Positions 9,268-40,951 are shown, counted from the first letter of the stretch. The stretch: DNA of 41,127 nucleotides from an uncultured Saprospiraceae bacterium (GCA_964445895.1 CAYUNA010000001.1:1-41127); one strand, 5' to 3'. A program made the numbers and translations. Notes: generated by a model from the sequence alone, not told the origin.

Positions 9268-9337
9268 CATTATTAAAGAAACCTATTTTCTAAATAGAAA
9301 TATCCTTATTAGCAGGAATCAAAAAAACACTTGAAGC

Positions 9338-10117: not shown

Positions 10118-10125
10118 GATTTCTA

Positions 10126-15538: not shown

Positions 15539-15580
15539 GAAGTATTTATTTTATGGTGATTAAGCGTTCGTTTCTATATT

Positions 15581-16375: not shown

Positions 16376-16929
16376 TTCAATTGTTGAGTACGATACAAAA
16401 TTACCAAGACACCCAATTTATTCTCTTTGTTTAAGACGGGTGCTACGACCATCGGGGTCTTGGCATCATCTTCCAAAAAGGTGACTTGTTCAGTCTGCAA
16501 TATCGCATTCAAATTGGAAATTAGAAAAATATCTTCCTCTTTTTTCTTGTTGGTCGAAACCAAAACCCTACCATCTTCTTCTTCCAAATAAGAAATTTCC
16601 AAGATGTTTTCGGACTTCACCAACTGCTTAAAATAGCCATCAACATCATCGTAATCTTCAAAGATAACTCTGTTCCCTGTTGCCCACGCAAGGGCTTTCG
16701 CGGTGGTCGTTAAACCTTCTTTCTCTACGGCGGAAAGCGTGTTTTGCGCTTCGGTTTTCAAGACCTCTTTTTCGGATTCAAATACAGCTTGCTGCTGGGT
16801 CAATGCTTTGCTTTGGGTGATGTAAGAGAAGCCCGAAAATGCGGCTAAACCGACCAATAAGACGTAGAAAAACCAGTTTCTACGAAGGTGTCCTTTTTCG
16901 GTTGTGGTCGTTACTGTTGTTTCCGCCAT
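16351..16929 (-). CDS. Membrane-anchored hypothetical protein (PDC/Cache-like extracytoplasmic domain, guess)
   Basis: 192 aa with one N-terminal TM (WFFYVLLVGLAAFSGFSYI). Overlaps the patatin start by 25 nt. Confidence 0.65.
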   Translation of the reverse strand: MAETTVTTTTEKGHLRRNWFFYVLLVGLAAFSGFSYITQSKALTQQQAVFESEKEVLKTEAQNTLSAVEKEGLTTTAKALAWATGNRVIFEDYDDVDGYFKQLVKSENILEISYLEEEDGRVLVSTNKKKEEDIFLISNLNAILQTEQVTFLEDDAKTPMVVAPVLNKENKLGVLVILYRTQQLKWQTKSPK

Positions 16930-16956
16930 GACGATTTTTTGTTTTGATATTGTTGT

Positions 16957-16994
16957 AAAAAAAGTGCGATAGCAAAGTGACTTTCCTATCGCAC
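16957..16994 (-). terminator. Rho-independent terminator (minus strand)
   Basis: Stem gtgcgatag / ctatcgcac, followed on the minus strand by TTTTTTT (16957-16963). Confidence 0.55.
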
Positions 16995-17103
16995 GAAATT
17001 TCCCTAACTCTAAAAGACGTGAAGGTGTTAAACCAAATCTTTAACGTAATCTACTGTCCCTTCACTTATATTTGAGATTATAATTTGTCTATTTCTCGAA
17101 GCC

Positions 17104-17135
17104 AAAAAGGGCAGGGAAAATGGGGGATTCCCTGC
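17104..17135 (-). terminator. Rho-independent terminator of 17157-18098
   Basis: Stem gcagggaa / ttccctgc, followed on the minus strand by CCTTTTTGG. It sits 22 nt after the stop. Confidence 0.6.
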
Positions 17136-17156
17136 GCCTATTTAGCCCATATTACT

Positions 17157-18098
17157 TTATCTTAATTGAAATTGGGAAGAACCCAACAAGCCCCAATCTG
17201 CATAAACAGATACTCGATAAGCTCCACCCCGCAACTTTTCTTCCAATGCTTGAATAAACTGCAAGCGAATACCATTTTGCAAAGTCGCTCTGATGGTTTG
17301 CTGTGCGATAATTGGAAACGCATCACCGCCTGTGTTTGGGTTAATGGTTGTGCTGACAGGATTTTTCACCTTGATAGGTGTTCCTTTTGCATCTGTAATA
17401 ACCAGGTACAGGCGTTCTTCTTTCAACTTATCTTTAGGGATGCTTTTCAAGTCAAAACTCACGACAATTTCCCGCGCTCGGTTGTGGCTCGAAGTGATTT
17501 TGTCGTTGGCTTTTTTGACATCCACCCGCATATTGGTGACGCGAGAGTTCGCCGCAGCCAGTTTTTTCAACTCTTTTTCCATCCCAATATTCAACTGCTT
17601 CATCTGCGCAATTTCACCCTCCAGTACTTTGTTTCGTTCATTGGCGGCGGCTACGTCTCCGGTCAGTTGTGCATTAGCAGCAGTCAATCGGGCATTTTCT
17701 TTTTTCAATTGAGCAATCACCGCCGTCAAATCTTTTTTGATGGTGCGCAATTGGTCAATTTCTGTTTGCATCCCTTTGGCATCTTTCGCAAAATCACTTT
17801 TGATTCGCTTGATTTCAGCCCTTTTAGCTTCGACTTTATCGGAAGTTTCAGCAAACAAAATTTTCATGGAATCATTGACTGACATTAATTCATCGTAGTC
17901 AGAATGTAGGTCGTCAATTTCTTCCAAAAGGTCGTCCCGAAGTCCTGATAGTGTTTCGACTTCTGCATTCAATTCCTGATTTTCAGCCGTTAAATTGGTC
18001 GTTTGATTCCAAAAATAACCACCCACAAGGATTGCCAATAAAAGCAAAACGCCAAGAATAATAGTGGTTTTTTTTGAGCTTTGATTTGAATTTTCCAT
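17157..18098 (-). CDS. Membrane-anchored coiled-coil protein
   Basis: 313 aa. N-terminal TM TTIILGVLLLLAILVGGYFW, then a long heptad-rich region and a C-terminal beta-rich domain. Confidence 0.75.
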   Translation of the reverse strand: MENSNQSSKKTTIILGVLLLLAILVGGYFWNQTTNLTAENQELNAEVETLSGLRDDLLEEIDDLHSDYDELMSVNDSMKILFAETSDKVEAKRAEIKRIKSDFAKDAKGMQTEIDQLRTIKKDLTAVIAQLKKENARLTAANAQLTGDVAAANERNKVLEGEIAQMKQLNIGMEKELKKLAAANSRVTNMRVDVKKANDKITSSHNRAREIVVSFDLKSIPKDKLKEERLYLVITDAKGTPIKVKNPVSTTINPNTGGDAFPIIAQQTIRATLQNGIRLQFIQALEEKLRGGAYRVSVYADWGLLGSSQFQLR

Positions 18099-18161
18099 TG
18101 TTTTAAAATCGTTTGAAGTTGATTAATGTAGCAAAGCCAAGCCCGTTGTAAGACGGGCTTA

Positions 18162-18320
18162 GGGAGTTTGTAAAAAATAATCTACCCACCCTGGCTCGTA
18201 CTTTTTCCATTTAAGAAACTTAAAAAAGGCTCAAATAACCAGTTATACTCACATTTTTTAAGTTCCTTAAATGAAAAAATTACTTCGCCATAATGGGTAC
18301 CTTATTTATTACAAACTCCC
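18162..18320. mobile_element. 159-bp palindromic MITE-like element, copy 1
   Basis: 12-bp terminal inverted repeats gggagtttgtaa / ttacaaactccc. The whole element folds as a long imperfect hairpin. It is flanked by a direct TTA/TTA. About 93% identical to 31010-31168 by eye. Confidence 0.7.
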
Positions 18321-18360
18321 TTACTGATGCTAAATATTTTATTGAAAATTTACTTTCGTG

Positions 18361-18390
18361 ATAAAGACTGCAACCGCAAAATCGGTCACA
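18361..18390 (-). promoter_or_regulatory. Bipartite motif copy A (TGTGACC-N15-GTCTTTAT)
   Basis: Exact match on the minus strand. The MITE copy begins 40 nt downstream and the next start codon (18098) is 262 nt downstream. Confidence 0.4.
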
Positions 18391-18411
18391 CCTCAATTAG
18401 ATAATTATTTT

Positions 18412-18801
18412 TTAACTAATGATAATAGACTGAATTAGTCCATTTTTCAAAGCTATATTCACTTTAAAAACCCTTGATTCAGTCCTTAATGTACCTATCA
18501 GATATTGGGCTTTCGTTCCTTTAGATTGCCCTTCGTGCATAGATTCAAAGGAGACAGCCGGATAGCGTTTAAAGAAAGCCATCAACTGTTTTTTAGCAGC
18601 AGCTTTATCAAACACATCCTCGACCGCCAGTATAGTCAAATCTATTTCTTCGGTATCAAGATAGGTCGCAATTACTTCGACATTTCCTTTGGCAAATGCC
18701 GAAATCAAATTGTTATGTTGAACCCTTTTGCGCCAGACCAATGGTGTTGCGCCCAATGTCCAAACCATAACAACGGTCAAAAGAGAAGATGTAATTTTCA
18801 T
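18412..18801 (-). CDS. 129-aa secreted hypothetical protein
   Basis: The ORF track gives 18412-18834. ATG 18799-18801 gives MKITSSLLTVVMVWTLGA (signal-like). The upstream part of the ORF overlaps motif copy E. Confidence 0.65.
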   Translation of the reverse strand: MKITSSLLTVVMVWTLGATPLVWRKRVQHNNLISAFAKGNVEVIATYLDTEEIDLTILAVEDVFDKAAAKKQLMAFFKRYPAVSFESMHEGQSKGTKAQYLIGTLRTESRVFKVNIALKNGLIQSIIIS

Positions 18802-18805
18802 CGTT

Positions 18806-18835
18806 ATAAAGACTCTGGATGCAACTTTCGTCACC
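18806..18835 (-). promoter_or_regulatory. Bipartite motif copy E (GGTGACG-N15-GTCTTTAT), degenerate upstream half
   Basis: Same 15-nt spacing. It lies in the 42-nt gap between the Usp stop (18844) and ATG 18801. The downstream box ends only 4 nt from the ATG, so its function or the start call is uncertain. Confidence 0.3.
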
Positions 18836-18843
18836 TCAAAAAT

Positions 18844-19665
18844 CTATAAATCTTTTAGAATTAGCAAAGGTACTTTGATGTCTCTCGCGACGGATTTGGT
18901 GGTACTGCGTTCCAGTAGCCGACCGAAGAAGTTCCGTTGGTGAGAGTTCATCACCATCAAGTCAAATTCCTTGTCTTTGGCAAATGCTTCAATGGTGTCT
19001 TCCAGATTCCCTGATTGAATTTCAAAATTAACCTTCGTCCCCTTCCGACCATCAAAGACACTATATAATACCTCGATGTCTTTCTTTACTCGCGCTTCTG
19101 TTTCGTGGCTATCTTCAAATACGTGGAGGCAATGAATATTAGCGTCCTTATCGAGCTTCTTACCCATTTCACGCAACATATTAATCAAGGCAATGTCCCG
19201 AAATTCAAAATCGGTGGTACAGCCCAAATCATTAATGCGATTAGTGGTAAACCCTTCAGGAAAAGCCAAGACCGCACACCCTAATTTGGTCATAATATCG
19301 AAAGTGGTGCTACCCAAATATTCCCCAAGATAACGATGGGAGTCTTTCACTCCCAATACAACCACATCAATATTTTCATCTTCTGCCACTCTTGGAATCG
19401 CGTCAAACGCAAAATCCTTATCAACGATGTACTCTATTTTTACACCCTGATGAATGATTGGTTGATGCTCGTGGACGAAGTTTTTTAATTCTTCCATCAC
19501 CTCTGCTCCGCGCTTGGCAAACTCTTTTTCGGTGAACATTGCACCATTTCCAAAAGCGTGGAACATCTTGATTTTTGAACCAAAAGTATGCGCTAAAAGA
19601 CTCGTGTATTCAAACATCTTTGGCGCATCTTTGTCAAAGTCAGTTGCAAAAAGTAGATTGAACAT
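18844..19665 (-). CDS. Tandem-domain universal stress protein (UspA family)
   Basis: 273 aa with two Usp-like halves. The C-terminus ...STTKSVARDIKVPLLILK is typical. Confidence 0.8.
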   Translation of the reverse strand: MFNLLFATDFDKDAPKMFEYTSLLAHTFGSKIKMFHAFGNGAMFTEKEFAKRGAEVMEELKNFVHEHQPIIHQGVKIEYIVDKDFAFDAIPRVAEDENIDVVVLGVKDSHRYLGEYLGSTTFDIMTKLGCAVLAFPEGFTTNRINDLGCTTDFEFRDIALINMLREMGKKLDKDANIHCLHVFEDSHETEARVKKDIEVLYSVFDGRKGTKVNFEIQSGNLEDTIEAFAKDKEFDLMVMNSHQRNFFGRLLERSTTKSVARDIKVPLLILKDL

Positions 19666-19677
19666 ATTATTTAGATT

Positions 19678-20520
19678 TTATTTTTCTTTAAAAACCAGCA
19701 TCGGCACGGGCGTATCTTTGGCTATTTCGTCTGTGACATCGGTAGCAAAAACCGTTCGCCATAATCCGCGCTTGTGCGTAGTTGTGGCAATCAAATCCGC
19801 ATGGCTCAATCGCAAATATTCATCAATACTGCCTACGACATCCCCAACAAAAATGTGGGGTTCGATTTTAGGGAACAGCTTTTGAAGCGATTCCATTTTT
19901 TGCGTTGCGACAGGTTTATCAGTTTCCGTTTCGCAGACGTGGATACACAATACTTTTGCTTTGAACGTTGCCGCCCAAGTTTGTAAAAATAACAGCGCTT
20001 CCAAGTCATCAAAGTGAAAATCAGTTGCGTAAACCAAGCGATTTAACCCCTGATATTTGGCATAATTGGGAATCATTAATACTGGGCAAGGTGCGTTTTT
20101 TACAATATCCTTGCGCTCATTACTTACAAATCTGGTGATAAAGCTACTCTCATATTGAGACGCAATCATCATTAAATTCGTTGGCGTTTCGGTTGCTATA
20201 TCGCGTAAAGCAGTATCTGGCGTTCCAAATTCTACACGATAGTTAATTGAAAGCCCCTCAAACTGTTTGGCAGAAGTACGCATTGATAAATCCTTCAGTA
20301 GCTGTAATCGTTTGACCTTAATCTCTTCCTTTCTGCTTTCAATTTCTTCAATAGATAACTTTGCCTGCATCAAATCAGCATCAGAAATCTCATACGTTCC
20401 GGGCTGAATAATATGCGCAATGGTCAAAGTTGCATCGAAGAACAAAGCGATTTTTAGTGCATGGTGCAACAGGATGGAAGATTGGTCTAAGTGGTTGATG
20501 CCTACAAGGATATTTTTCAT
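19678..20520 (-). CDS. Tandem-domain universal stress protein (UspA family)
   Basis: 280 aa. MKNILVGINHLDQS...LTIAHII and the C-terminus ...TDEIAKDTPVPMLVFK. Confidence 0.85.
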   Translation of the reverse strand: MKNILVGINHLDQSSILLHHALKIALFFDATLTIAHIIQPGTYEISDADLMQAKLSIEEIESRKEEIKVKRLQLLKDLSMRTSAKQFEGLSINYRVEFGTPDTALRDIATETPTNLMMIASQYESSFITRFVSNERKDIVKNAPCPVLMIPNYAKYQGLNRLVYATDFHFDDLEALLFLQTWAATFKAKVLCIHVCETETDKPVATQKMESLQKLFPKIEPHIFVGDVVGSIDEYLRLSHADLIATTTHKRGLWRTVFATDVTDEIAKDTPVPMLVFKEK

Positions 20521-21513: not shown

Positions 21514-23070
21514 TTAAAAAGGATAAATAACGATATTTTCATTAAGCGTATCCACATTATTATTCTTTTGTTCTTTTTGGAATACAGGTATAGAAATGCT
21601 TAGTTTATAAACTAAAAAATGAATGCAGTAATCGTTATTTTCATGCAATGTGGGCAAAGAAATTTGAAAATCAATTGGATGTTCCTCTGCATGAGTATTA
21701 ATAGTGTCTGATTGAAGATGAAAGTTATTTACTATTTCTTTTCGATTGTCACCTTCAATACAGATTAATTTGAAATATTCATTAAAATTAGCTGGTGAGA
21801 TAAAAATTCTCTTGGTTGGATGTAAATTTTTGATTGTTCCCTTAATTTTCGTCTTATCTTCTGACAATTCAAAAGATAGCTCAATGCCCCGATTTACTTT
21901 ATTATTCCATTCGTCAATCGAATAAAACATTTTCCCAAGCATACTTCTAATTAATCGGTAGTTATCGGAAAACGGATTAACTTCAAAATAGTGTAGCCCA
22001 GTCTGGAGCATCTCTTTTTGCTTTAAAGACTCTAACCAAATGCTATTTTCCATAGCCGTTTCAATCCTTCTTACTGCTCGCCTATTTTCTTCCAGAGAAA
22101 CGGAAAAAGGCTTAGATTTTAAGCCCTCATAAGCACCAGTTACATTTCGTTGCTCACTTTCTTCCCCTTTCCTGTAAGCAGGTATATACTTTTTTATCCA
22201 TTTTAAATAATGTATTGAGTTAAACGAATTTGGGTTTAAAGGGTCGTCCTCCTCCAACTCTTTAGAGGTATGAAACGCACACAGGCATCTTTCAAAATGA
22301 AGAATTACCCAATTTTCAAAACTGCGGCAGGAATAAGCTACATTGATATAATCCTTCCACGTAGCATCAAGTTCTCCTTCTTCGCCGCCAGCGTAATCAA
22401 ATTGTTGATTATTATAAAAAAGTGCTGTGGGGTCTGCATTATTCAAATCTTCAAACTCTTGACGTTTATCTGTTAGTTGAATAACCATATTTTGCTCATC
22501 AGTAATATGACAGGTCGTTTCAAGAAAACGCTGATAGTCCAATTTGGACAGAAAGCAACAACCCCTATATGCTTTTATTTGATTGAATGTAGCAGCATCA
22601 AGCCTGTTCTGCATTCTATTTAAAGTGTTCTCTGTGATTTGATAACTGTTACAATCGTCGTTATCAATCACTATCCATATTTCGTCGTATGGATTCTGCT
22701 CTTCTTCATTTTTCTCATCCTCTTCTCTTTTTAGCTCCATCGCCTTCCAAATCATTCCTTTGAGGCTGTTATCTATCAACTCATTATTTTCTTTTTTGTG
22801 GGATTGGGTAATGACTTTTATTTCAACTGCTGACAGTTTTCTGCTTAGTACTAAATTTGATTTTAATCCTTCAAAATAGGATTTTTCTGTTGGTCCTTCA
22901 CAGATAATCAAAAAACGTTTTGCGGGTAGTTGTACTTTTTCTTCGTCGCGCAATTTGGCACCGTCAGGTATAACAAAAACTGGAACATCCTTTTTCTGTT
23001 TTTCTGCTTTCAACTCTCGCTTTTGGGTTTGCTTCAATTCTCGCCTTTGCTGCTTTTTTCTTTTACTCAT
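21514..23070 (-). CDS. RloB-like (Toprim-related) protein, AbiLii-like, extended (518 aa)
   Basis: RFLIICEGPTEKSYFEGLKS matches the RloB CEGxxTExxYF signature. IWIVIDNDD is a DxD-type acidic motif. It has a Lys/Arg-rich N-terminus and ~170 extra C-terminal aa. Overlaps the upstream ATPase gene by 8 nt. Confidence 0.85.
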   Translation of the reverse strand: MSKRKKQQRRELKQTQKRELKAEKQKKDVPVFVIPDGAKLRDEEKVQLPAKRFLIICEGPTEKSYFEGLKSNLVLSRKLSAVEIKVITQSHKKENNELIDNSLKGMIWKAMELKREEDEKNEEEQNPYDEIWIVIDNDDCNSYQITENTLNRMQNRLDAATFNQIKAYRGCCFLSKLDYQRFLETTCHITDEQNMVIQLTDKRQEFEDLNNADPTALFYNNQQFDYAGGEEGELDATWKDYINVAYSCRSFENWVILHFERCLCAFHTSKELEEDDPLNPNSFNSIHYLKWIKKYIPAYRKGEESEQRNVTGAYEGLKSKPFSVSLEENRRAVRRIETAMENSIWLESLKQKEMLQTGLHYFEVNPFSDNYRLIRSMLGKMFYSIDEWNNKVNRGIELSFELSEDKTKIKGTIKNLHPTKRIFISPANFNEYFKLICIEGDNRKEIVNNFHLQSDTINTHAEEHPIDFQISLPTLHENNDYCIHFLVYKLSISIPVFQKEQKNNNVDTLNENIVIYPF

Positions 23071-24415
23071 GATTTTGGAAAATTTCAGAGTTTTTCACAC
23101 GAGAAATGATTACATCATGCTGAATACTCGGAATCCCACCAAATCGGCCTGATAAATACCATTTTTGAAAAGGACTGTTGCTTCTGACTCCACTAAACTC
23201 GGAAATTGGATAGACTTCGGTTGCATTGTATTCATTCTTTTGAAAAAGAAAGATTTGGTCTCGGCTGAAAACGTCAGCACTAAGTAAAGAAGGGTCGTGG
23301 GTAACAAAGATTAATTGAGCATTGTTGGGATTTGAATCTTCATTATGAAAGAATCGAATTAAAGATTCAGTTATGCGAGGATGGAGGCTTTTATCCAATT
23401 CGTCAATTAATAGAACATCTCCTGATTGTAACGCAGATAAAATTGGAGGAAGCAAACTTAGAAACTTATTTGTTCCTGTGGATTGTTCGCTTAGTGGTAG
23501 GGTATCTGTTCCAATTTCATTTTCGCCATCAAACATTCGATGTTTTATTTTTATCCTGAATTTTAACCTATCCAAAAGGTCATTTTCTATTCTCCTTTTT
23601 TCTTCTTCTGGGAATCCATCTGGAAACTCAACGGTTGGTAAAGCCCCATCTTTTCCAACATCAATACCAACGATAGAACTGTCTAACTGCATTATTAGAT
23701 TTTCAATTAATCTACCAACAGGCGAATTGATATTTTCGGACAGAAATTTACCTAAAGTACTCATTTGAATCTCGTTATACCCCTCTCCTGAAAAACTAAA
23801 CCAATCTAAGTGCTTTGAAAAGAATAAATAAACAGGAATGAGTTGCTCGTGCGCTTGATTAACTGCTTCTGACAAGAACAGTTGATTAGGCAGTAATATT
23901 TCTTCTATTTGCTTTTTCTTTCCTCTGAAAGTTTCCCCGAACCTCATAGCAGTACCTTCTTCACGAGTATAGAGTTTCACCTGTGATACTCGCGTTTTTC
24001 CCTCAATCGGGTAATAACTCAATTCTTCCTCAATAATTTTTTCCCGATTAAATTTTACATAGTATTGATAACGTAAATCATTAGGAGCAATAAATTCAAT
24101 GTTAAATATTGTCGGGGATTTGCGGGTTTTAAGGTCGAAATGAAAAACTTCATTTGCTTCGAGCGAGTCTCCTGGTTGAAATCTATTTGATTTTTCAACT
24201 ATCCACTTAAATGCTTTAAATGCTCTGAGAAAGTTACTTTTTCCAGCATTATTCGCTCCATATATAACGGCTGAGTTGAGCGTATATAATTTATCGTATT
24301 TTTTGCTTCTGGAAGGCATGTTCGGTCGCTCTCGCACATTTTTAGAAGGAATTAGATTGAGTGTTTGAGTTTCTTTTATTGACCTAAAATTAGTAACAGA
24401 AAAAGATAGTAGCAT
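23063..24415 (-). CDS. ABC-type AAA ATPase (AAA_15/AAA_21-like), AbiLi-like
   Basis: MLLSFSVTNFRSIK..., Walker A GANNAGKSNF, signature-like SEQSTGTNKF, Walker B VLLIDELDKSLHP and H-loop region LIFVTHD. Confidence 0.9.
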   Translation of the reverse strand: MLLSFSVTNFRSIKETQTLNLIPSKNVRERPNMPSRSKKYDKLYTLNSAVIYGANNAGKSNFLRAFKAFKWIVEKSNRFQPGDSLEANEVFHFDLKTRKSPTIFNIEFIAPNDLRYQYYVKFNREKIIEEELSYYPIEGKTRVSQVKLYTREEGTAMRFGETFRGKKKQIEEILLPNQLFLSEAVNQAHEQLIPVYLFFSKHLDWFSFSGEGYNEIQMSTLGKFLSENINSPVGRLIENLIMQLDSSIVGIDVGKDGALPTVEFPDGFPEEEKRRIENDLLDRLKFRIKIKHRMFDGENEIGTDTLPLSEQSTGTNKFLSLLPPILSALQSGDVLLIDELDKSLHPRITESLIRFFHNEDSNPNNAQLIFVTHDPSLLSADVFSRDQIFLFQKNEYNATEVYPISEFSGVRSNSPFQKWYLSGRFGGIPSIQHDVIISRVKNSEIFQNHE

Positions 24416-26243: not shown

Positions 26244-26251
26244 TACTTTTG
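26244..26251 (+). promoter_or_regulatory. Bacteroidota -7 box (TACTTTTG) for the ParB-ATPase operon
   Basis: Matches TAnnTTTG, 22 nt upstream of ATG 26274. This supports 26274 over 26208 as the start. Confidence 0.4.
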
Positions 26252-26273: not shown

Positions 26274-28427
26274 ATGAACCATCAGACAAACAATATAGTA
26301 GATTTTCTACCAATAGAGAAAATTTTTCTTGACCCTAATAATTATCGCTTTATTGATAATAGAAGTTATCAGAAAGTAGATGATAGTGCTATTACAAATC
26401 AGCGTATTCAAGAAAGAACTTTTAATTTTATCGTTGGTAAAAATAACGAGGGGATTCGTGATTTGATTAAGAGTTTTAGAAATAATGGCTATCTAAACGG
26501 AGACCAAATACATGTCCAAAAGATTAGTGATGATGAGTACAAAGTAATTGAAGGGAATAGGAGAATTGCAACTTTAAAGTTTTTACAAAACCGATACGAA
26601 AAAGGCATTAGTATTGGGCAATTAGACCCTAGCATCTTTCAGAATATCCCTGTAATGCTTTATGATGATAAAGATTCACAGCATTATAGAGTTATCATGG
26701 GATTGCAGCATATCACTGGTAAAAAAAAGTGGTCTCCAGTTAATCAAGCTCAATTAATTAAAGATTTGATAGATGGAGGAATGTCAGAAGAAGCCGTAGT
26801 TGATGCCCTTGGTACAACTAAGCATTTTTTGCGGAGGACGCTTCGCGCTTTATCGCTTATCAATGCCTACAAAGATAGTGATTATGGCGACCAATTTACT
26901 GCTGAAATGTACAATATTTTCCATGACGCAGTTAATTCCCAGCCTATAAAAAGTTGGTTAGCTTGGGATGATTTTACAAAGAAACCTACAAATGCTGATA
27001 ACGCAGAACGTTTTTTCTCTTGGCTCTCAAAGCCTGAAATTATTGAAAATGACGGCGAAAGAAAGATTTTAGACCCCATTATTCAAAAAGGTAGTGATGT
27101 TAGAGATATAGCAAGGTTTATCCATGATGATAAAGCATTAGAATGGATGGAAGACACTCGACAAATTAGCGATGCTTATTTAAGTGGAGGGTCAATTGGC
27201 AAAGAAAAATTTAATAATACCTTATTTCAAATTGACAAATACTTTGATTCTGCTATTCCATTTGCGACTTACGCAGATGGTTCATCTAAAGAGAAATTAG
27301 AAGAAATCCAAAAGAAATTAAGAATGCTTTTAGCTTCTCAAAATATATCATCTTCCGAGGTGGTGGTAGGTCAAAATGGTCAAGCAGAAGTTTTATTAGA
27401 TTTAAAGAGTAGTAAACAATTTTCTGAAATATTAATAAAGAAGTATAAGCAGTTCAACCATCTGAAAATAGAAAGTCTTAATCGAGTCAATATTTTTGCG
27501 GGTATCAATAACATTGGCAAATCCTCTTTGTTAGAAGCTATTTTGTTACTTTCTCGGCAAAATGATATTAATGGTTTTTTAAATATTCAACGAAGAAGAG
27601 GGAAATTTCTCAATAATGCTATTCCATCTAACTGGTTAAACAAAATTTTTATTGAACCAATCGAAATTGAAGGCTACTTTTGGAATAGCCCTGTCTCTAT
27701 AAAAATCGAAAAACGAACAGAAGATGAAGAACACTTAGATAAAACTGCTTACTTAAATTCTGTATTTATCAAAGGTCAATTTGCTGATGACCATTTTGAA
27801 AGTTACATGCGGCTTTACGGAAATAAACCGAGTGAACTATTTTACAAAAATATTAAAATACTTTGTCCAAGTGTTTATTCTACACCTTTTGCCATGCAAT
27901 TGGGCAATGATTTATATGATGCTCATGAAGCAAGCATTACCTCAAAATCTTATGATAAAATTTTAGAATTTATTCAGAGTTCTATTGACGGAGGTATTTT
28001 GGATATAAATCTTGTCAATCCCGACGACCTTAGAAGATTCGAGGTTAATCACGATTATTTTGAGGAAACTATTGACCTTACGCAGTTTGGAGAAGGCTTA
28101 CAAAGGATATTTTACATTGCTCTACTGTTTGCAAAAGCCCGCAATGGCATCGTACTGATAGATGAAATTGAAACAGCTATTCATTATTCACTTTTAGTCC
28201 AATTTACTAAGTTTATTCAAAAATTAGCAGAAGATTACAACGTGCAGGTTTTTGTCTCGTCTCACAGTAAAGAGTGCATCAACGCATTCTTAGAGAACGG
28301 ATATGAGAACGAAACTATATCGGGGTATCATTTAGAGAAAAAGAATGGAGAGATTGTCTGTCAGCAAGTAACAGGAGAGCGTTTTTCTCGCTTGATTCAA
28401 AATTTCAATTACGATTTAAGAGGCTAA
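26274..28427 (+). CDS. Fusion protein: ParB/Srx-like N-domain + HTH + ABC-type AAA ATPase (AAA_21-like)
   Basis: The ORF track gives 26208-28427 and the likely start is MNHQTNN. LPIEKIFLDPNNYRF and VIEGNRRIATLKFL are ParB-box-like. C-terminal half: Walker A GINNIGKSSLLEA, signature-like QFGEGLQRIF, Walker B IVLIDEIETAIH, and VFVSSHSKE. Confidence 0.85.
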   Translation: MNHQTNNIVDFLPIEKIFLDPNNYRFIDNRSYQKVDDSAITNQRIQERTFNFIVGKNNEGIRDLIKSFRNNGYLNGDQIHVQKISDDEYKVIEGNRRIATLKFLQNRYEKGISIGQLDPSIFQNIPVMLYDDKDSQHYRVIMGLQHITGKKKWSPVNQAQLIKDLIDGGMSEEAVVDALGTTKHFLRRTLRALSLINAYKDSDYGDQFTAEMYNIFHDAVNSQPIKSWLAWDDFTKKPTNADNAERFFSWLSKPEIIENDGERKILDPIIQKGSDVRDIARFIHDDKALEWMEDTRQISDAYLSGGSIGKEKFNNTLFQIDKYFDSAIPFATYADGSSKEKLEEIQKKLRMLLASQNISSSEVVVGQNGQAEVLLDLKSSKQFSEILIKKYKQFNHLKIESLNRVNIFAGINNIGKSSLLEAILLLSRQNDINGFLNIQRRRGKFLNNAIPSNWLNKIFIEPIEIEGYFWNSPVSIKIEKRTEDEEHLDKTAYLNSVFIKGQFADDHFESYMRLYGNKPSELFYKNIKILCPSVYSTPFAMQLGNDLYDAHEASITSKSYDKILEFIQSSIDGGILDINLVNPDDLRRFEVNHDYFEETIDLTQFGEGLQRIFYIALLFAKARNGIVLIDEIETAIHYSLLVQFTKFIQKLAEDYNVQVFVSSHSKECINAFLENGYENETISGYHLEKKNGEIVCQQVTGERFSRLIQNFNYDLRG

Positions 28428-28438
28428 TCATCATTCCT

Positions 28439-29254
28439 ATGAAAATAATAATTACGCTTTGCGAAGGGCCGCACGATGTTGAATTTTTATATAAGATATT
28501 AAGGACAACAGGTTATCGAACTTACGGCAAAAAGGTGGAAGAACTCCCCGTTTTTTTGAAAGAGCATGTATTAAGTGCTTTTAGGAAATTTCCTTATGAG
28601 GAAAAGAATCTTTATGAAAGACCTGTTTTACCTACTTTGGGCTACCATGAAGCTAAAGATATTTTAATGATGTTTTATGCACTTGGGGGAGATGGAAAAA
28701 TTGATGAAGCTAATTTTGTTATTCGAGCATTCCAAGATTTGATTATTACTAAAATACATGGCCAAATTGACATGGGATTGGCTTTTATTTATGATGCTGA
28801 TGATGACGGTGTTGCTTCGCGAGTAAACAATATCAAAACGAATTTCAGAAGATTACTTCCCGAAATAGAAAACATTGACCACAACAAAGTAATTAGTGGA
28901 AACGAGTATCAGGCAATTGGTGCTTATATTTTTTCAAATGGAGATGGAATTGGAAAATTAGAAGATATCCTACTACCTCTAATGAAGGAAGATAATGAAC
29001 CCATATTTGATGATGCCCAAAAGTACTTGAATGACCATTTCGATGATACACGATTTAAAAATCCGCGAGATATGAGGAAGTATTATGACCATAAAAAGTC
29101 CCTTATAGGTATGGCAGGACAATTGCAGCGTTCAGGACGAAACAATACAATGATTATTAAAGATTCGGATTATATCACGACAGAAAAAATTGAGGGACAT
29201 GCTACTTGCATGGAAATTCTAGCCTTTTTTGATAATGTATATAACAATATCTAG
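28439..29254 (+). CDS. 271-aa Toprim-like partner protein (DUF4276/OLD-Toprim-like, guess)
   Basis: MKIIITLCEGPHDVEFLYKIL carries the conserved Glu in a strand-EG context. FIYDADDDG is a DxD-type motif at aa 119-123. It starts 11 nt after the ATPase stop. Confidence 0.8.
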   Translation: MKIIITLCEGPHDVEFLYKILRTTGYRTYGKKVEELPVFLKEHVLSAFRKFPYEEKNLYERPVLPTLGYHEAKDILMMFYALGGDGKIDEANFVIRAFQDLIITKIHGQIDMGLAFIYDADDDGVASRVNNIKTNFRRLLPEIENIDHNKVISGNEYQAIGAYIFSNGDGIGKLEDILLPLMKEDNEPIFDDAQKYLNDHFDDTRFKNPRDMRKYYDHKKSLIGMAGQLQRSGRNNTMIIKDSDYITTEKIEGHATCMEILAFFDNVYNNI

Positions 29255-31237: not shown

Positions 31238-32236
31238 TTGCCAACTCTCCAAAACAAGTATATAGAAAAATTCTATTCACTAAAAGATAATTTATCAGAG
31301 ACCCCTAATAAGTTTAGAAGGTTTGGAAATAAAAAAACTTATTATGCACCTCATGTTTTGCTAAAAAAAGGATTGAACAAGAATGAAATTTGTGCTTCAT
31401 TTGTTGATTTTGATTGTGCATTTAGAGACGGCTGCTATGGTATCCAGGCCCCTCTTAATGAAGTTGATAAGTTAAAATTTTTGACAGTCTATTTTAATTC
31501 TTCATTAGTTTCTTATTTTTTATTTTTAAGTATTTCATCTTTAGGTATTGAAAGAGAGCAGATAATGCTTGAAGAGTATCTACAACTTCCCAATATTTTT
31601 GAAAAGACTTCTATATCAAAAATGTCCCAAATCAATGATTTATTTGATTCAATAATCGAATTAAAAAAAGATTTAATACCTAATAAATCTTCTATATTCT
31701 ATGAGTTAAAGTCTAAATTAGACAGCTTAATTCTTGCCTCATTAAATCTTACAAAAATTGACGCTATCTTAATTGATTGCTTACTTAATAGTGAACTTAG
31801 CAGCTTTATTAACAAACAAAAATCTATCGCTTACCATCCTTGCCAACTTGACGATACAATAAAATACGCCAAATATCTCAATAAAACCATCAATGAGTTT
31901 TTGGATTATGACGATGAATTAGTTGCTTGGTCAACGGTGTTTGAATTGAGTCATCGGATTCCTTTAAATGTCACCGTTTTAAATTTGAACAATCAGAAAG
32001 CGGCAGATACTGTTGTCAATTTATCAGAGCAAGAAATCGGGCAAATTCTAAAAGCAATGGAGCGACACACCTACAAAAAATTTGCAGAAAGCATCTATTT
32101 TAGACGATTTTTCCGCTACTATGATGACGATAAAATCTATATCATCAAACCGAACGAAAAACGTTTTTGGTCTCGCTCAATAGCCATCAATGACGCAGAC
32201 GAACTCATTGTAGAAATGCTAAACCAAATGAAATGA
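31238..32236 (+). CDS. 332-aa ORF resembling the TaqI_C-like C-terminal module of type IIG/gamma N6-adenine methyltransferases; no catalytic domain, possibly a 5'-truncated remnant
   Basis: The frame opens at TTG with no in-frame ATG near the 5' end. PHVLLKKGLNKNEICASFVDFDCAFRDGCYGIQ and LTVYFNSSLVSYFLFL...LEEYLQLP fit the TaqI_C pattern by eye. No NPPY/DPPY or FxGxG motif is present. Confidence 0.5.
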   Translation: MPTLQNKYIEKFYSLKDNLSETPNKFRRFGNKKTYYAPHVLLKKGLNKNEICASFVDFDCAFRDGCYGIQAPLNEVDKLKFLTVYFNSSLVSYFLFLSISSLGIEREQIMLEEYLQLPNIFEKTSISKMSQINDLFDSIIELKKDLIPNKSSIFYELKSKLDSLILASLNLTKIDAILIDCLLNSELSSFINKQKSIAYHPCQLDDTIKYAKYLNKTINEFLDYDDELVAWSTVFELSHRIPLNVTVLNLNNQKAADTVVNLSEQEIGQILKAMERHTYKKFAESIYFRRFFRYYDDDKIYIIKPNEKRFWSRSIAINDADELIVEMLNQMK

Positions 32237-32904
32237 GTGGAAAAATTAACGCTAAAATCCTTCTAAAGTTTTATGAAAAAACAAGACACTGGTGTCATAA
32301 AGCAGTAGTTGAAGGTTACCAAAAATTACAGGTGAATGGTATTGATTATCGGGAATTTGAGGAAGAAGATATTAGTAAAGCATTGTATGAAGAAATGGTT
32401 GAGTTACCATTGGTAAAAGAAAAACAAATTACCATTGTTCCAGAATTTCGATTGTACGGCAAAAAATACTCTAATAAAGATGCTAATGCCAAACGGTCAG
32501 ATAGAATTGATTTTCGATTTTCGAAGTGGAAGCAACAAAAGCAATTAGAGTATTTTGGAGAAGCGAAAAACCTTTCCTTGAACAATTGGACTAAAAGCTC
32601 TAATTCGACCCCAGTAAACGCCAGTTATTATAGAGGTCGATACATTGATACGGGCATCAAACATCTACTTTCGGGTAGTTATTCTCTGTTGACAGGTTTT
32701 CTAATTGGTTATGTGGTTAATGGTTCAGCCAATAATAATCTTGAAGCACTTAATAGACTTATAACTAAACGGAAACTCCAACCTGCTATCGGAATGATTG
32801 AGCAACAAAAAACTATTGGTGGCCATTTCGATTGTTATTCTTCGGAAAATCAAATGGTAGGAAAATCGGTCGGTTTAGACCATATTTTTCTACCATTTGA
32901 TTGA
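32233..32904 (+). CDS. 223-aa protein with PD-(D/E)xK-like nuclease motif
   Basis: The ATGA overlap with the previous ORF suggests translational coupling. IVPEF ... SDRIDFRF ... FGEAKNL fits the E / D / ExK arrangement. Confidence 0.65.
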   Translation: MSGKINAKILLKFYEKTRHWCHKAVVEGYQKLQVNGIDYREFEEEDISKALYEEMVELPLVKEKQITIVPEFRLYGKKYSNKDANAKRSDRIDFRFSKWKQQKQLEYFGEAKNLSLNNWTKSSNSTPVNASYYRGRYIDTGIKHLLSGSYSLLTGFLIGYVVNGSANNNLEALNRLITKRKLQPAIGMIEQQKTIGGHFDCYSSENQMVGKSVGLDHIFLPFD

Positions 32905-33528: not shown

Positions 33529-36500
33529 ATGCAATCAGGCTTCAAAAACAACCGAAATCAAGACGCTGCGGCTACTATTAGAGGATTTCTATATCAGGCG
33601 TATCAAACCATTGATTTGTGGCTTCAACTTAATGATGGGGAACAGTTAGAATTAGAAAAAGGGGAAGATGTTGATATTGTCAAAGAAAATGATGCTCGGG
33701 ATTTAATCCAAGTAAAAGACTTAATATCAAAGATTACGCTTCGCGATAAAAATGTAGGAGAGTGTTTATTTAATTGGTATCAACATCAAAAGACCAATCC
33801 GAATTTTACCCTTAAATTTTGTTTTTTGACAACTGCCACAACAACAAAAGAAAAAGGTAGCCAATTTCCTAATGGTAAATGTGGCATAGAAATATGGCAA
33901 GAAATACATACAGATAAATGTACCGACAAGGATTTAGCACTCAAAGAGATTAAGAAAATATTGCTTGAAGCAGCACAAACATTAAAAGGTAAGCAATCTA
34001 AAAAACAAAATGCGGCTTGGGATGATTGGGTTAATTATCTCAATAATGTTAAAGGAGCTGACTTAGAAATTTTTATCAAAGGATTTTATTTCTTACCCGC
34101 CCAACAAAAATTGGATGATTTAAGAAATGCTATTGGAATTGCGTTACTTCAAAAGAAAAAAGCAACAACCAAAAATCTTGAAAGTAGAATTCAAACGTTT
34201 TTGACCTATGTTTTTCACAAGCTTTCAGAACCAGGTAAGAAAATTCTGACCGTCGAGGAAATTACCACTTGCGTTGATTGTAATTCAACTAATGAATTGA
34301 AAGAGTTAAATAATAAGTTGAAAGATTTAGAAGATTTCTATTCTCCGACAAATTTTTTGCAGAGACAACAACTCCACGAATATCCTAATCAGGAGAGTGT
34401 AAATAATTACAAAAAATCAATTAGAAAAGCTTATAAAAATTGGAATGTACCGCAAGAAGTAATTGGCTGGGAAGAGATTTCTACGAAGCAATTTGACCCA
34501 AAAGAAATTCATAGGTTTAAGGAAAAAGCAACCCAAGAAGATAGATTATCAACTTTAAATGCACCACTATTAAAATATAGAGGTTTAGGACAAAGAACCA
34601 ATCAAAATATTTGGATATTTGAAGGAAATACTGGTTTGGGGAAAACAGTATTTCTGAAGTGTTTGAATTATGAATTTGCAAGCATAGACAATCCAAAAAT
34701 TCCTATTTATATTCCGTTGAGAAAAATCAGTTCTCAGAATACTCTCAAAAAGCTTATCCTAAATGAATTAAATCAAAATGACTATGAAATAAAGGAAGAA
34801 CAGCTTTTTAAATTACTAAAAAATCATCCTTTTACCCTATTGTTAGATGCCTATGACGAGGTTGACAAAACCTTTATTAGAACACTAAAAGAAGAAATCG
34901 GAGAGTTCGAAAGATTCTGTAAAATAATCATTACTACCAGACCAGTAGCCGTACTCAAGCTACCAAAATCGACGACCTTTGAACTTCAACCATTGGAGTA
35001 TGACAGAGTCAAATCAATTGTAATTGAATACATTGGAGAATCCTCTTACTATGATTTCATCAAAAAAATTGAACAACATGGCTTACTCTCAGAAACTAAG
35101 AATATACTGCTATTACTCTTATTTATTGGCGTTTATCGAAAACATGGACAAGTTCCAGCTTCTAACTCTGAACTGATTAAAACAATTGTAGACGATATTT
35201 TTACATGGGTTTCCTCTAAAAATACCGCTGAAAATAGTTGGTTTACAAAGAATGTTATCGAAGATATTTTAGAGCAAATTGCTTATATTATTTATTCCAA
35301 AAATAGCAAAACGCAATTATTGAGTGAAGAAATTGACAAATTTTTCTTTGAATATATCGAAGATAAAGCCAAATTAAGGCAGATTCCCCAAGAAGAGACC
35401 ATTGCGAAATTAAAGCATAGAATGGCACAAATTGGAATACTTATTTTTAATAAAAATGGAGAAATTTATTTTTGGCATCGACTATTTTTGAATCACTTTG
35501 CGACCATTTCTTTTGCAAAAAAAATCACCGCAGAAGAAATAGACTTAAAAAAAGTAATAGTAGAATATCACTGGATTATTCCGTTAATTAACTGTCCACC
35601 TTATCTTCCAGAAAAAAAGCAAATTGAATTTTTAGCACTCATAGAAGATAACCTTTGGCTAATAGCTGAAGCTTTAGCAAACGTATTAAACCCTTCGAAA
35701 GAATTATTACAAGAAACCATTCAACGACTAAAAGTCTGTTGTGTTTCGGGCATCTTTAAAATAAGGATGCATGGAATTCATTATCTTAAAATACTCAACC
35801 AAAAACATCGTCAATACACCAGTCCTGTTATCTGGGAATTATTTAATTCAACTTCATTGTGTGTTGAAGTGAGAAGGATAGCATTTTTGGAAATTGCCAG
35901 TGAAAAGTCAGAAGCCGCTCAAAAATTAGTTTTTGACCATTTAGATTGGGACGAGGGCAGTCAATTCAATGTCATTGGGACACAAGAAGAAGTAATAAAA
36001 GCATTGTCTTATTGCGGAGAAAAAGGGTATTGGCAAATGTTTGAATTACTAAAATTACGGTATTCGAGAATTTCTTTCTCTTTTGATAATGTTTTCTCAG
36101 AATTGATAACTTTCAACAAGTTACCCGAAGATTTGCTACAAGCAATATTTGACTGGTTTATTGAAGAATTTAATGATGATAATACTGAACGAATTCATTA
36201 TAAAATCCCTCTTTTACTTGGGAAGATACGAAAAGAAGGATGGATATCCACGCTAATTTTAACTCTAAAAAATGCTATTATCCAAAACGGAGGCAAACTC
36301 AGATTTTCAAATATTAACATCATCAGAATATTAGAAGAATACACTTCCAAAGAATGTATCAATTTACTTTGGCAAGAATATAATTCTCCTGAAACTGTAT
36401 TAGAATTAAAACGTGACATTGCAACAATTTTATCTAAATATCAGGGTGATGTTCCGCTTACATATTATCAAACATTGATTGAAGAAGAAGATATTAATTG

Positions 36501-37452
36501 TAAAAAATCAGGAATTAAAGGACTTGGACGATTTGAATACGGAGAAATACATTTACAGTTAAAGGATTTACTTCATCATGAAGAATGTGAAATCCACCGG
36601 TTGGCTTTTGAGGTATCTCTTGAAAATGGTTTTATCCTTGAACTGTTAAAAGAAGATTTTATTACAGAAGATTTTTTAGCCGATTGTCACTGGAAAACTG
36701 TATTTTTTTTAAAAGCTATCGCTAAATATGGATTAGAAAATCAAATTGATTTTATTAGAGATGTTATCAATAAAAATGGTGGAAGTTACTCTATTTTGGT
36801 TCACTATTTAAAAGCTTTAGCAGCTAATAATCTACAAGATAGATTGGTGGAAACCTTCAAAATGAATTATTTCAAAGATGAAAAATTAAAATTTCCAGAA
36901 GAAAATGATTGTGTTAGGCAACAAATCAATAAGTTTGAAATAATTGAACTTTTGCCTACAAAAACTGCAATAGAGATGCTAACTATTCTGTATGAACAAT
37001 CGATAAATGCTGAAGATTTAAGAAATTTTTCCTATTATTTCGATGATGCTTATAAAAATAATTTTTCTCCTGATTTCTCTCCATTTTTGAAAAAATTAGT
37101 GATTGATTCAATCGAATATAACAACGTCAAAAATAATAAGAAAATTTATTCCACTCACCGTTACCTGTTGGCTTTGTCAACTATGATTAAAGATGACGAT
37201 GAGTCATGGTTAATTGACTTATTCAAAAAATACCCACAAGCAGATGTTCAAGTAAGAATAAAAATAATATCGTTGTTAGGTAGAATTACAAAAACTAAAT
37301 CTGCCGTCGAATTAGCAAAAACTACTGCGAAAACGACAGCAAATGGCATTATACTAAACTCTTGCTACGAAATTCTTGTTACTTACAATCGAAGAAATGG
37401 AATTTTACGGCAAATAAAAGAGTCAGAACTTTTTGATTACAATACGATGTAG
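33529..37452 (+). CDS. STAND/NACHT NTPase with N-terminal DUF4297 (Cap4-like PD-(D/E)xK nuclease) domain and C-terminal helical-repeat region (Avs/bNACHT-like antiphage protein)
   Basis: N-terminus RGFLYQAYQTIDLWLQL...LEKGEDVDIV...LIQVKD. Walker A FEGNTGLGKTVFLK, Walker B FTLLLDAYDEVD and the NACHT-type IIITTRP. About 700 aa of HEAT/ARM-like helical repeats follow. Confidence 0.9.
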   Translation: MQSGFKNNRNQDAAATIRGFLYQAYQTIDLWLQLNDGEQLELEKGEDVDIVKENDARDLIQVKDLISKITLRDKNVGECLFNWYQHQKTNPNFTLKFCFLTTATTTKEKGSQFPNGKCGIEIWQEIHTDKCTDKDLALKEIKKILLEAAQTLKGKQSKKQNAAWDDWVNYLNNVKGADLEIFIKGFYFLPAQQKLDDLRNAIGIALLQKKKATTKNLESRIQTFLTYVFHKLSEPGKKILTVEEITTCVDCNSTNELKELNNKLKDLEDFYSPTNFLQRQQLHEYPNQESVNNYKKSIRKAYKNWNVPQEVIGWEEISTKQFDPKEIHRFKEKATQEDRLSTLNAPLLKYRGLGQRTNQNIWIFEGNTGLGKTVFLKCLNYEFASIDNPKIPIYIPLRKISSQNTLKKLILNELNQNDYEIKEEQLFKLLKNHPFTLLLDAYDEVDKTFIRTLKEEIGEFERFCKIIITTRPVAVLKLPKSTTFELQPLEYDRVKSIVIEYIGESSYYDFIKKIEQHGLLSETKNILLLLLFIGVYRKHGQVPASNSELIKTIVDDIFTWVSSKNTAENSWFTKNVIEDILEQIAYIIYSKNSKTQLLSEEIDKFFFEYIEDKAKLRQIPQEETIAKLKHRMAQIGILIFNKNGEIYFWHRLFLNHFATISFAKKITAEEIDLKKVIVEYHWIIPLINCPPYLPEKKQIEFLALIEDNLWLIAEALANVLNPSKELLQETIQRLKVCCVSGIFKIRMHGIHYLKILNQKHRQYTSPVIWELFNSTSLCVEVRRIAFLEIASEKSEAAQKLVFDHLDWDEGSQFNVIGTQEEVIKALSYCGEKGYWQMFELLKLRYSRISFSFDNVFSELITFNKLPEDLLQAIFDWFIEEFNDDNTERIHYKIPLLLGKIRKEGWISTLILTLKNAIIQNGGKLRFSNINIIRILEEYTSKECINLLWQEYNSPETVLELKRDIATILSKYQGDVPLTYYQTLIEEEDINCKKSGIKGLGRFEYGEIHLQLKDLLHHEECEIHRLAFEVSLENGFILELLKEDFITEDFLADCHWKTVFFLKAIAKYGLENQIDFIRDVINKNGGSYSILVHYLKALAANNLQDRLVETFKMNYFKDEKLKFPEENDCVRQQINKFEIIELLPTKTAIEMLTILYEQSINAEDLRNFSYYFDDAYKNNFSPDFSPFLKKLVIDSIEYNNVKNNKKIYSTHRYLLALSTMIKDDDESWLIDLFKKYPQADVQVRIKIISLLGRITKTKSAVELAKTTAKTTANGIILNSCYEILVTYNRRNGILRQIKESELFDYNTM

Positions 37453-40847: not shown

Positions 40848-40951
40848 CTGTTCAATTTTTCGATTTTGAGAAAAGGAATCCAGCCCCAACAATGTGGAAC
40901 TGTTGGGTACTGAATTCAAAAAATACATCGGCTAAAGTTTTAGCGACTTAA

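Follow-up and report, generated by a model that had tools for sequence, protein, structure and literature searches.

A ParB-like head fused to an ABC ATPase and paired with a DUF3226 protein: a member of the candidate defence family PDC-M38 in a Saprospiraceae bacterium

The stretch of DNA analyzed here (the window) is 41,127 nucleotides (nt) in length and comes from an uncultured Saprospiraceae bacterium (GCA_964445895.1 CAYUNA010000001.1:1-41127). At positions 26274-29254 it carries a pair of genes that raises two questions: does a ParB-like domain fused to an ABC-type ATPase and followed by a small Toprim-like protein belong to a named family, and what might such a pair do? An earlier note, made from the sequence alone, had described gene 1 as a fusion of a ParB/Srx-type N-domain, a helix-turn-helix (HTH)-like segment and an AAA_21-like ATPase, and gene 2 as a protein with Toprim hallmarks. 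Open reading frame (ORF) analysis gives proteins of 717 amino acids (aa) for gene 1 and 271 aa for gene 2. Both are on the + strand and are separated by an 11 nt spacer (28428-28438, TCATCATTCCT); they probably constitute one operon. The two ORFs, the gap and all peptide motifs quoted in the note are located as described, except that its Walker A residue K438 is numbered from an upstream TTG and is K416 when counted from the ATG. To judge from strong family matches in long ORFs, which are far beyond chance, the ORFs and their domains are real.

Both proteins match PDC-M38, a candidate defence family represented in PADLOC. Gene 1 is colinear with the PDC-M38A model PDLC04607, with aa 3-717 corresponding to positions 3-715 of 715 (E = 1.7e-269), and gene 2, adjacent and on the same strand, matches the PDC-M38B model PDLC04615 with E = 3.9e-79. 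The other PDC-M38A models (PDLC04608-04611) are ATPase-only, have about 362-383 positions, and match only aa ~382-716 of gene 1; the ParB head was therefore added in one branch of the family. On these profile matches the pair is a ParB-fused subtype of the catalogued candidate PDC-M38, with no family-level difference. This supplies the family name that the earlier note had left to a search, and it accords with the defence-type architecture of ABC ATPase plus Toprim-like protein that the note had recognized. The fused form is already known in that it has its own 715-position PADLOC model, and the pair is not a new kind of system. The PDCs are 145 candidates obtained through "guilt-by-embedding", i.e., from genes that recur inside BREX, DISARM or type I restriction-modification (R-M) loci (Payne et al.). 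Later published tests of PDCs covered others, not PDC-M38. Gene 1 has an identity of 40-49% to most of its homologues and of 77-79% to sequences on two short metagenome contigs.

The pairing of the two genes is strictly conserved. When homologues are clustered at 90% identity, at least 391 clusters match gene 1, and those listed are mostly 700-745 aa in length. A survey of 185,579 species genomes, with one genome per species, gives at least 378 confirmed stretches, of which the best 80 loci were analyzed. These are from Bacteroidota, Firmicutes, Campylobacterota, Gamma- and Betaproteobacteria, Desulfobacterota, Cyanobacteria, Planctomycetota, Spirochaetota, Acidobacteriota and others; the distribution is patchy and cross-phylum. 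A DUF3226 gene, as identified by hidden Markov models, is directly downstream in 76 of the 80 loci, with gaps of -47 to +11 nt and a single gap of +128 nt. Three further loci have a short DUF3226 variant, and in the last the contig ends at the gene. All 79 loci that can be assessed thus have the two genes together, which answers the question of co-occurrence that the earlier note had raised.

Two genomic contexts recur. The order hsdM-hsdS-[A-B]-hsdR on one strand is present in 14/80 loci, with Hsd identities confirmed by Pfam in one of them (locus L008); a location between hsdS and hsdR is the classical PrrC/Rlo position. The type I R-M embedding that defines the PDCs is recovered here independently. 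The second context is the P4-like satellite. Among 5426 complete E. coli genomes, 35 (~0.6%) carry a copy with 96-97% nt identity to an Enterobacter version of the pair; it is always chromosomal, and its proteins have no annotation beyond "AAA family ATPase" and "hypothetical protein". In E. coli STEC276 (L090, positions 9001-12085) a pair of 745 aa and 280 aa, WP_044189384 and WP_049091835, is found right after sid/psu/ogr-delta of a P4-like satellite. This location is the psu-int defence hotspot (PMC9122126). These contexts fit a horizontally mobile defence cassette. Because of the PDC-M38 identity, the strict pairing, the R-M and P4-hotspot contexts, the patchy cross-phylum spread, the intact ATPase and the neighbors in a defence island, the pair is read, at somewhat better than even probability, as a two-gene cassette of the sensor-transducer-effector type that would act against phages or mobile elements.

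The position between hsdS and hsdR also suggests a narrower function, in which the pair would be a guard of the R-M system: as in PrrC or PARIS, the ATPase would sense phage anti-restriction proteins or inactivation of the neighboring type I enzyme, and not DNA, the head would only tether the complex to DNA or to Hsd proteins, and gene 2 would be released as an abortive nuclease. PARIS, the best-understood pair of an AAA_15/21 ATPase and a Toprim protein, is a precedent in that it senses proteins (such as Ocr) and not nucleic acid, and anti-defence proteins are listed as triggers of several ABC ATPase systems (Payne et al.). However, 66 of the 80 loci and the window have no adjacent type I system, and the E. 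coli copies in the P4 hotspot are without hsd genes. The motifs of the head are conserved and the head travels with other nucleases, which points to an active sensing role of its own. A guard function is considered rather unlikely.

A role outside immunity was weighed as well. ParB-like and ABC (SMC/Rad50-like) domains in combination recall chromosome organization proteins, and the ArdC-like gene that lies at the window end hints at a conjugative element. The pair might then serve in partition or condensation, as a system of the ParB/SMC type, or stabilize a mobile element as an addiction module. The evidence is mostly contrary. Neither ParA nor any other third gene is conserved in the 80 loci, and no ParA-type gene is seen among the window ORFs scanned. 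A search of 72,556 plasmids gives no full-length match to gene 1, only two short matches to ATPase fragments. The ATPase has no coiled-coil insert in the AlphaFold2 (AF2) model. The pair is sparse, as the E. coli frequency and the number of confirmed stretches in the species survey show, and it occurs in R-M operons and satellite hotspots. A non-immune role is therefore quite improbable, and a ParABS partition locus in particular is rejected on the missing ParA, the missing third gene and the plasmid result. A partition-linked housekeeping locus, the outcome that the earlier note had seen as contrary to defence, does not appear in these contexts. Gene 2 has no match in phage genomes, and there are no tRNA genes in the window, so no integration site can be inferred.

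The AF2 model of gene 1 has a mean pLDDT (local distance difference test, as predicted) of 84.9 and divides the head into a mixed alpha/beta part (aa 10-130), a helical HTH-like part (aa 132-200) and a helical region that extends to aa ~357. A disordered linker follows (pLDDT < 50 for aa 358-369), and this region is variable and gapped in the homologue alignment. Gene 1 alone scores 16.3 bits with PF02195, below the cut-off of 26.3. The ParB/Srx-type domain proposed in the earlier note nevertheless finds support in other evidence. TIGR00180 matches gene 1 with E = 1.7e-6, ParB_N (PF02195) is matched by 17 of 32 gene 1 homologues at E <= 0.01 (best 5.8e-5), and 17 PD-Lambda-5_A models match the first 100-170 residues (aa 10-170; 1.3e-10). 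When a head profile is compared with the PDB, EGNRR aligns with the box that reads GERR in Noc and ParB (E 0.011-0.018), and the helices that follow EGNRR align weakly with the HTH of Caulobacter ParB. The ParB assignment, as read from these alignments, holds at the family level, though gene 1 alone is sub-threshold in Pfam. The HTH-like segment is likewise upheld as helical; it is modeled as helices at 132-146, 155-167, 172-179 and 183-200, and single homologues match HTH_ParB (0.0035) and HTH_7 (0.00092). DUF262 has no match in gene 1 or in the 32 homologues.

The motifs LDPNNYRF and EGNRR are invariant among the fused proteins. In standalone and phage homologues of the head, described below, D20, N23, R25 and EGNRR are also invariant and P21 is 95% conserved. 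Across fused, standalone and phage forms D20, P21, N23, R25, E93-G-N-R-R97, H146, G149, W153, W228 and R277 are present at 95-100%. With a profile made from gene 1 aa 1-372, the number of representative proteins matched is 2810 at E <= 1e-3; at the stricter limit of 1e-30 it is 299. The matches represent two size classes, fusions of ~700-745 aa and standalone proteins of ~355-382 aa that cover the entire head; in the standalone proteins of 355-382 aa the helical middle region is conserved together with the ParB-HTH part. In PADLOC the standalone heads align with no more than the N-terminal half of the PDC-M38A model (positions ~11-363).

A gene for an Mrr_cat nuclease is directly 3' of the standalone head in four of five contexts, and in the fifth the contig is cut. 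The four pairs consist of a head of 362-380 aa and an Mrr_cat (PF04471) nuclease of 247-300 aa (L083, 5001-6867; L084, 365-2367; L085, 4001-5916; L089, 228-2268). A search of PADLOC v2 gives no dedicated model for this two-gene form, and the Mrr_cat partners match no corresponding system there. Head homologues are also present in P2-like phages, e.g., gp98 of Wphi and a 373-aa protein of Yersinia phage HQ103, with matches over ~300-340 aa. Each has a second gene next to it; the pairs occupy the variable right end near gene A, and that of Wphi adjoins a cytosine methylase. In these phage pairs a head homologue of 401 or 373 aa is accompanied by a second protein of 369 or 329 aa (L081, 96-2331, Wphi gp98 + gp96; L082, 227-2327, HQ103), and the second proteins have no significant Pfam match and no PADLOC match. 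A cassette of "DNA_methylase + hypothetical + ParBc" is listed in published P2-hotspot tables. The first ~160 aa of the head are common to PD-Lambda-5_A, which is part of a defence system that has been validated. The head is thus found in at least four contexts: with an ABC ATPase and DUF3226, with Mrr_cat, in the PD-lambda-5 A protein, and with a gp96-type partner in P2-like hotspots.

Since nucleotide-pocket-like motifs are kept and the head is combined with different nucleases, its most plausible role is sensory or regulatory, and not that of an effector. The earlier note had suggested a DNA-sensing module. The pairing of the portable head with Mrr-type nucleases adds support to that idea, with sensing itself as an inferred property. 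A more specific proposal is that the ~360-aa head (DPxNxR, EGNRR, HxxGxxxW, HTH and helical region) is a distinct, portable, nucleotide-gated sensor of foreign DNA, separate from ParB-DUF262, and that the fused form would let an AAA_15/21 ATPase-nuclease system sense DNA, unlike PARIS. This proposal is tentative, and the odds are considered to lie against it.

The same data bear on two other explanations. One is that the pair restricts DNA directly in a type IV-like, non-abortive manner, with the head recognizing modified DNA, the ATPase clamping or dimerizing on the DNA, and gene 2 cutting the invader. The standalone heads are paired with Mrr_cat, the catalytic family of type IV enzymes, ParB-family domains sense modified DNA in GmrSD and SspE (PMC12065111), and GmrSD-like proteins are also embedded in defence loci (Payne et al.). 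But the head is not DUF262 and carries EGNRR in place of DGxQR, and AriB and RloB/AbiLii, to which the effector is most closely related, belong to abortive-type systems; direct restriction is accorded a low probability. The other explanation makes the head itself the effector, as an NTP-depleting NTPase or a DNA nickase, with DUF3226 as a regulator or antitoxin. That DUF3226 retains the invariant acidic constellation of a metal-dependent enzyme even in a 183-aa form is difficult to reconcile with such a role, and in its other contexts the head has bona fide nucleases or a methyltransferase-type protein as partners, which fits a sensor. An effector role has been proposed for ParB/Srx proteins, which can be active as nucleases and NTPases (PMC10853773, PMC12839542), and the head motifs are invariant, yet this assignment is regarded as highly improbable.

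The second half of gene 1 is an ABC ATPase by motif and fold. Pfam gives AAA_15 (1.4e-16) and AAA_21 (1.7e-16), and the Walker A (G410..K416), GEGLQR, Walker B (D630, E631), H637 and H-loop H664 residues are invariant among the 32 homologues, so that all four motif types are present together with the ABC fold. A Foldseek search with the AF2 model returns PtuA (retron/Septu) as the best match (2.7e-12), followed by Rad50, AriA and GajA, with E values of 1e-12 to 1e-9. The ATPase part matches the ATPase-only PDC-M38A model PDLC04608 (3.4e-46) and AbiLi (5.3e-36) in PADLOC. The full AAA_21-like ATPase of the earlier note is borne out by these results. From its motifs the ATPase is intact and predicted to be ATPase-competent.

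Gene 2 belongs to DUF3226 (PF11536) with E = 8.7e-11. This match is above the Pfam cut-off; of the other families in the profile search that the earlier note had outlined, AAA_15 and AAA_21 match gene 1 as given above, and PF02195 stays below its cut-off for gene 1 alone. The AF2 model of gene 2 has a pLDDT of 93.1 and a predicted template modeling (TM) score of 0.90. Residues that are invariant or conserved at >= 90% in 31 homologues are C8-E9-G10-x-H12-D13, D119-A-D121 and G172-x-L-E175-D176; D119 is invariant and E9 and D121 are present in >= 90%. In the model E9 is just after the strand at 2-8 (strand 1) and D119xD121 is at the end of the strand at 111-119 (strand 3). By sequence, the acidic order E9, D119xD121, E175/D176 is as expected for Toprim nucleases.

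Short forms of the partner provide a link to other Toprim-type families. Minimal DUF3226 partners of 183-188 aa are found in Campylobacterota and Mariprofundaceae (L042, 10088-10639; L068, 3724-4275; L077, 4941-5507). They retain only the CEGxxDxxF, DxD and GxLE motifs, match Pfam DUF3226 with E of 5e-11 to 5e-6, and are PDC-M38B in PADLOC for the two that were scanned. When the minimal variant is compared with the RloB alignment by hhalign, 107 columns align with E = 5.7e-5 and the E and DxD motifs line up; only these short variants bridge DUF3226 to RloB. Their next-best Pfam matches include RloB (0.0019, 0.0068), Toprim (0.045) and OLD-like_TOPRIM (0.1), beside unrelated sub-threshold matches. 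In published HHpred tables DUF3226 is the second-best match of PARIS AriB, with a probability of 96.8%, ahead of DUF4276 and RloB (Rousset et al. 2022). AriB is a structurally characterized Toprim nuclease whose Toprim domain was first detected at an HHpred E of only 0.02. Because of the motif order, the remote RloB homology and the published AriB-DUF3226 link, gene 2 is likely Toprim-like.

The proposed mechanism takes its form from related systems. In PARIS, six AriA hold three AriB, and ATP-dependent detection of the trigger frees AriB, which cleaves tRNA-Lys. By analogy with PARIS, Septu, AbiL and Menshen, the ATPase of gene 1 would oligomerize and keep the gene 2 nuclease inactive. The ParB-HTH head would bind foreign, possibly modified or aberrant DNA in a nucleotide-dependent manner, and this signal and the binding or hydrolysis of ATP in the ABC domain would together release or activate the nuclease. 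Cleavage of nucleic acid (tRNA or DNA) by this nuclease would then halt phage replication, and the infected cell would probably be sacrificed. Sensing of modified DNA is a serious variant of this scheme, in view of the Mrr_cat pairing and of the ParB-DUF262 domains in GmrSD and SspE; a guard of restriction, as the hsd embedding suggests, is another.

Several observations weigh against the defence cassette or against parts of its mechanism. How the two proteins interact and oligomerize, what triggers them, and what the nuclease does and to which substrate are all drawn from analogy. Foldseek searches with the gene 2 model against the PDB and BFVD give no significant match (best E 0.013-0.024, TM <= 0.33), and the best matches are to generic Rossmann-like proteins and small GTPases (E >= 0.013). 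Profiles of the DUF3226 alignments compared with PDB sequences give nothing relevant, and the long DUF3226 alignment compared with RloB by hhalign recovers the CEG motif only, with a probability of 2.3%. Of the Toprim hallmarks in the earlier note, the Glu and DxD are located, conserved and in the right order, and automated fold searches add no significant match; a lack of a Toprim-like fold, which the note had named as a contrary outcome, is not shown by these non-significant searches, and the motif order and remote homology speak for such a fold. The pair in the window is not embedded in an R-M locus but is flanked by membrane, channel and sigma-factor genes. In the literature searched, no paper names PDC-M38 or DUF3226 in its main text. 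Finally, box II of gene 1 is GNRR, with N95 where canonical ParB has Glu. Canonical ParB CTPases have a GERR box II and use the Glu for hydrolysis. Because this Glu is replaced by Asn, nucleotide binding or turnover by the head may differ from that of ParB, and from its motifs the head may bind nucleotide without fast turnover.

A comparison with known systems other than PDC-M38 places the pair close to several of them and inside none. With PARIS it shares an AAA_15/21 ABC ATPase and a small separate partner, which here is likely Toprim-like, and both occur in P4-satellite hotspots; gene 1 matches AriA models with E = 1.5e-20, AriA structures are found by Foldseek, and the HHpred link joins AriB to DUF3226. 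The partner in PARIS is DUF4435 (AriB) and not DUF3226, AriA has no ParB-HTH head, and PARIS senses proteins. PARIS is rejected as an assignment, since gene 2 has no DUF4435/AriB match at E <= 1, and the published detection rule is DUF4435 beside AAA_15/21. AbiL shares the ATPase, as the AbiLi match shows, and the short DUF3226 variants are weakly linked to RloB and AbiLii, but AbiLi has no ParB head. AbiL is also rejected; gene 2 has no AbiLii/RloB match, and the hhalign probability of the long alignment is the low value given above.

Menshen has a ParB-DUF262 sensor (NsnA), an ABC ATPase (NsnB) and an effector (NsnC), and some NsnC are of Toprim type (DUF4276, RloB). The logic of a ParB-superfamily part with an ABC ATPase and a nuclease, here a putative one, is common to both, and gene 1 matches NsnB with E = 2.6e-19. 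Menshen has three genes and the DUF262 motif DGxQR, whereas here there are two genes and EGNRR. No DUF3696 tail or inPIN domain is detected in the pair. Menshen is rejected on the two genes, the EGNRR motif, the lack of DUF262 in the 32 homologues, and a gene 2 that is DUF3226 only. The OLD/Gabija class has an ABC ATPase of the same family and the Toprim chemistry that gene 2 probably has, with matches of gene 1 to GajA models at ~1e-11 and to GajA by Foldseek. OLD and GajA each combine ATPase and Toprim in a single polypeptide that lacks a ParB head; with separate genes here and no helicase neighbor such as GajB of Gabija, this class is rejected. PD-lambda-5, a validated E. coli system, shares the ParB-like head through the N-terminal PD-Lambda-5_A matches, but neither it nor the P2-hotspot cassette has an ABC ATPase or DUF3226; the partners are a methyltransferase-type region or other proteins. 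A published AAA15/21 tree lists PARIS, OLD, Gabija, AbiL and MADS3-4, and DUF3226 is not among the Pfam families used for its annotation.

The features of the pair are collected in Table 1. An in-frame TTG at 26208 lies upstream of the gene 1 ATG; since homologues start where the ATG is, translation from the TTG is unlikely. The Bacteroidota -7 promoter consensus is TAnnTTTG. The box TACTTTTG fits this consensus and is a candidate only. A scan with the sigma-70 consensus gives fewer sites than shuffled controls and none upstream of gene 1.

Table 1. Positions of the two genes, their domains and motifs, and a candidate promoter element in the window.
Feature	Position	Strand	Basis
Candidate Bacteroidota-type -7 promoter box, TACTTTTG	26244-26251	+	Read from sequence; 22 nt before gene 1 ATG, between TTG and ATG
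Gene 1, PDC-M38A: ParB-HTH-helical head fused to ABC ATPase	26274-28427	+	ORF, PADLOC, AF2
ParB/Srx-like N-domain, aa 10-130	26301-26663	+	Profile matches, invariant motifs
Box I-like LDPNNYRF, aa 19-26	26328-26351	+	Motif located in translation
Box II-like EGNRR, aa 93-97	26550-26564	+	Motif located in translation
HTH-like segment, aa 132-200	26667-26873	+	AF2 helices, weak ParB HTH alignment
Invariant H146-x2-G149-x3-W153 motif in HTH-like segment	26709-26732	+	Alignment
Helical middle region, aa 201-357, part of portable head	26874-27344	+	AF2; conserved W228, R277
Flexible head-ATPase linker, aa 358-380	27345-27413	+	Low pLDDT, variable gapped alignment
ABC ATPase, OLD/AAA_15-AAA_21 type, aa 381-717	27414-28424	+	Pfam, PADLOC, Foldseek
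Walker A GINNIGKSS, aa 410-418	27501-27527	+	Motif located
GEGLQR signature, aa 606-611	28089-28106	+	Motif located
Walker B/D-loop LIDEIETAIH, aa 628-637	28155-28184	+	Motif located
H-loop SSHS, aa 662-665	28257-28268	+	Motif located
Gene 2, PDC-M38B: DUF3226 Toprim-like putative metal-dependent nuclease	28439-29254	+	Pfam, PADLOC, AF2, ORF
CEGxxD (E9), within LCEGPHD, aa 7-13	28457-28477	+	Motif located
DxD (D119, D121), within DADDDG, aa 119-124	28793-28801	+	Motif located
GKLED (E175, D176)	28952-28966	+	Conserved residues of gene 2

Other genes in the window have matches to defence families. About 2 kb upstream of the pair, on the - strand at 21514-24415, is an AbiL-like pair with an 8 nt overlap. 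It consists of a 450-aa AAA_21 ATPase (AbiLi, 6.1e-88) and an unusually long RloB protein of 518 aa (Pfam RloB, 6.7e-23; AbiLii, 3.1e-16); the latter has only seven homologue clusters in a database of 5.8 billion proteins. Downstream, at 33529-37452 on the + strand, is a 1307-aa protein with a NACHT/NB-ARC NTPase at aa ~357-503 and an N-terminus that matches LmuA (8.3e-21, aa 9-337). By sequence it resembles STAND/bNACHT-type defence proteins, here with an effector head of the Lamassu type. A 1411-aa TPR protein at 10126-14361 on the - strand has the PIN domain of the TPR-GreAB-C-PIN system (PF20698, 8.2e-18) and no PADLOC match. Two overlapping ORFs of 332 and 223 aa at 31238-32904 on the + strand are without a family; the first weakly matches the C-terminus of a type IIG restriction-methyltransferase (4.9e-5), and the two may be a remnant or a defence gene pair. 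At 39906-40928 on the - strand is an ArdC-like anti-restriction protein (ArdcN, 5.2e-31; zincin MPTase-PolyVal, 4.3e-37), which suggests that the right end of the window lies in a conjugative or integrative element. The region at 14804-20520 on the - strand encodes TerC, a patatin-like phospholipase, a coiled-coil protein, DUF4783 and two universal stress proteins. Since apparently ordinary genes are located between the defence genes, the island is interrupted and not compact. For annotation, the locus is an instance of PDC-M38 inside a loose defence island.

If the defence reading is correct, a DUF3226-type effector would join the family of defence systems that combine an OLD-like ABC ATPase with a Toprim protein. 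The head, fused in cis to the ATPase and present elsewhere with other nucleases, would make the system a good candidate for learning how an infection is recognized. The near-identical architecture in the P4-satellite hotspot of 35 E. coli genomes makes this hypothesis testable in a standard host.

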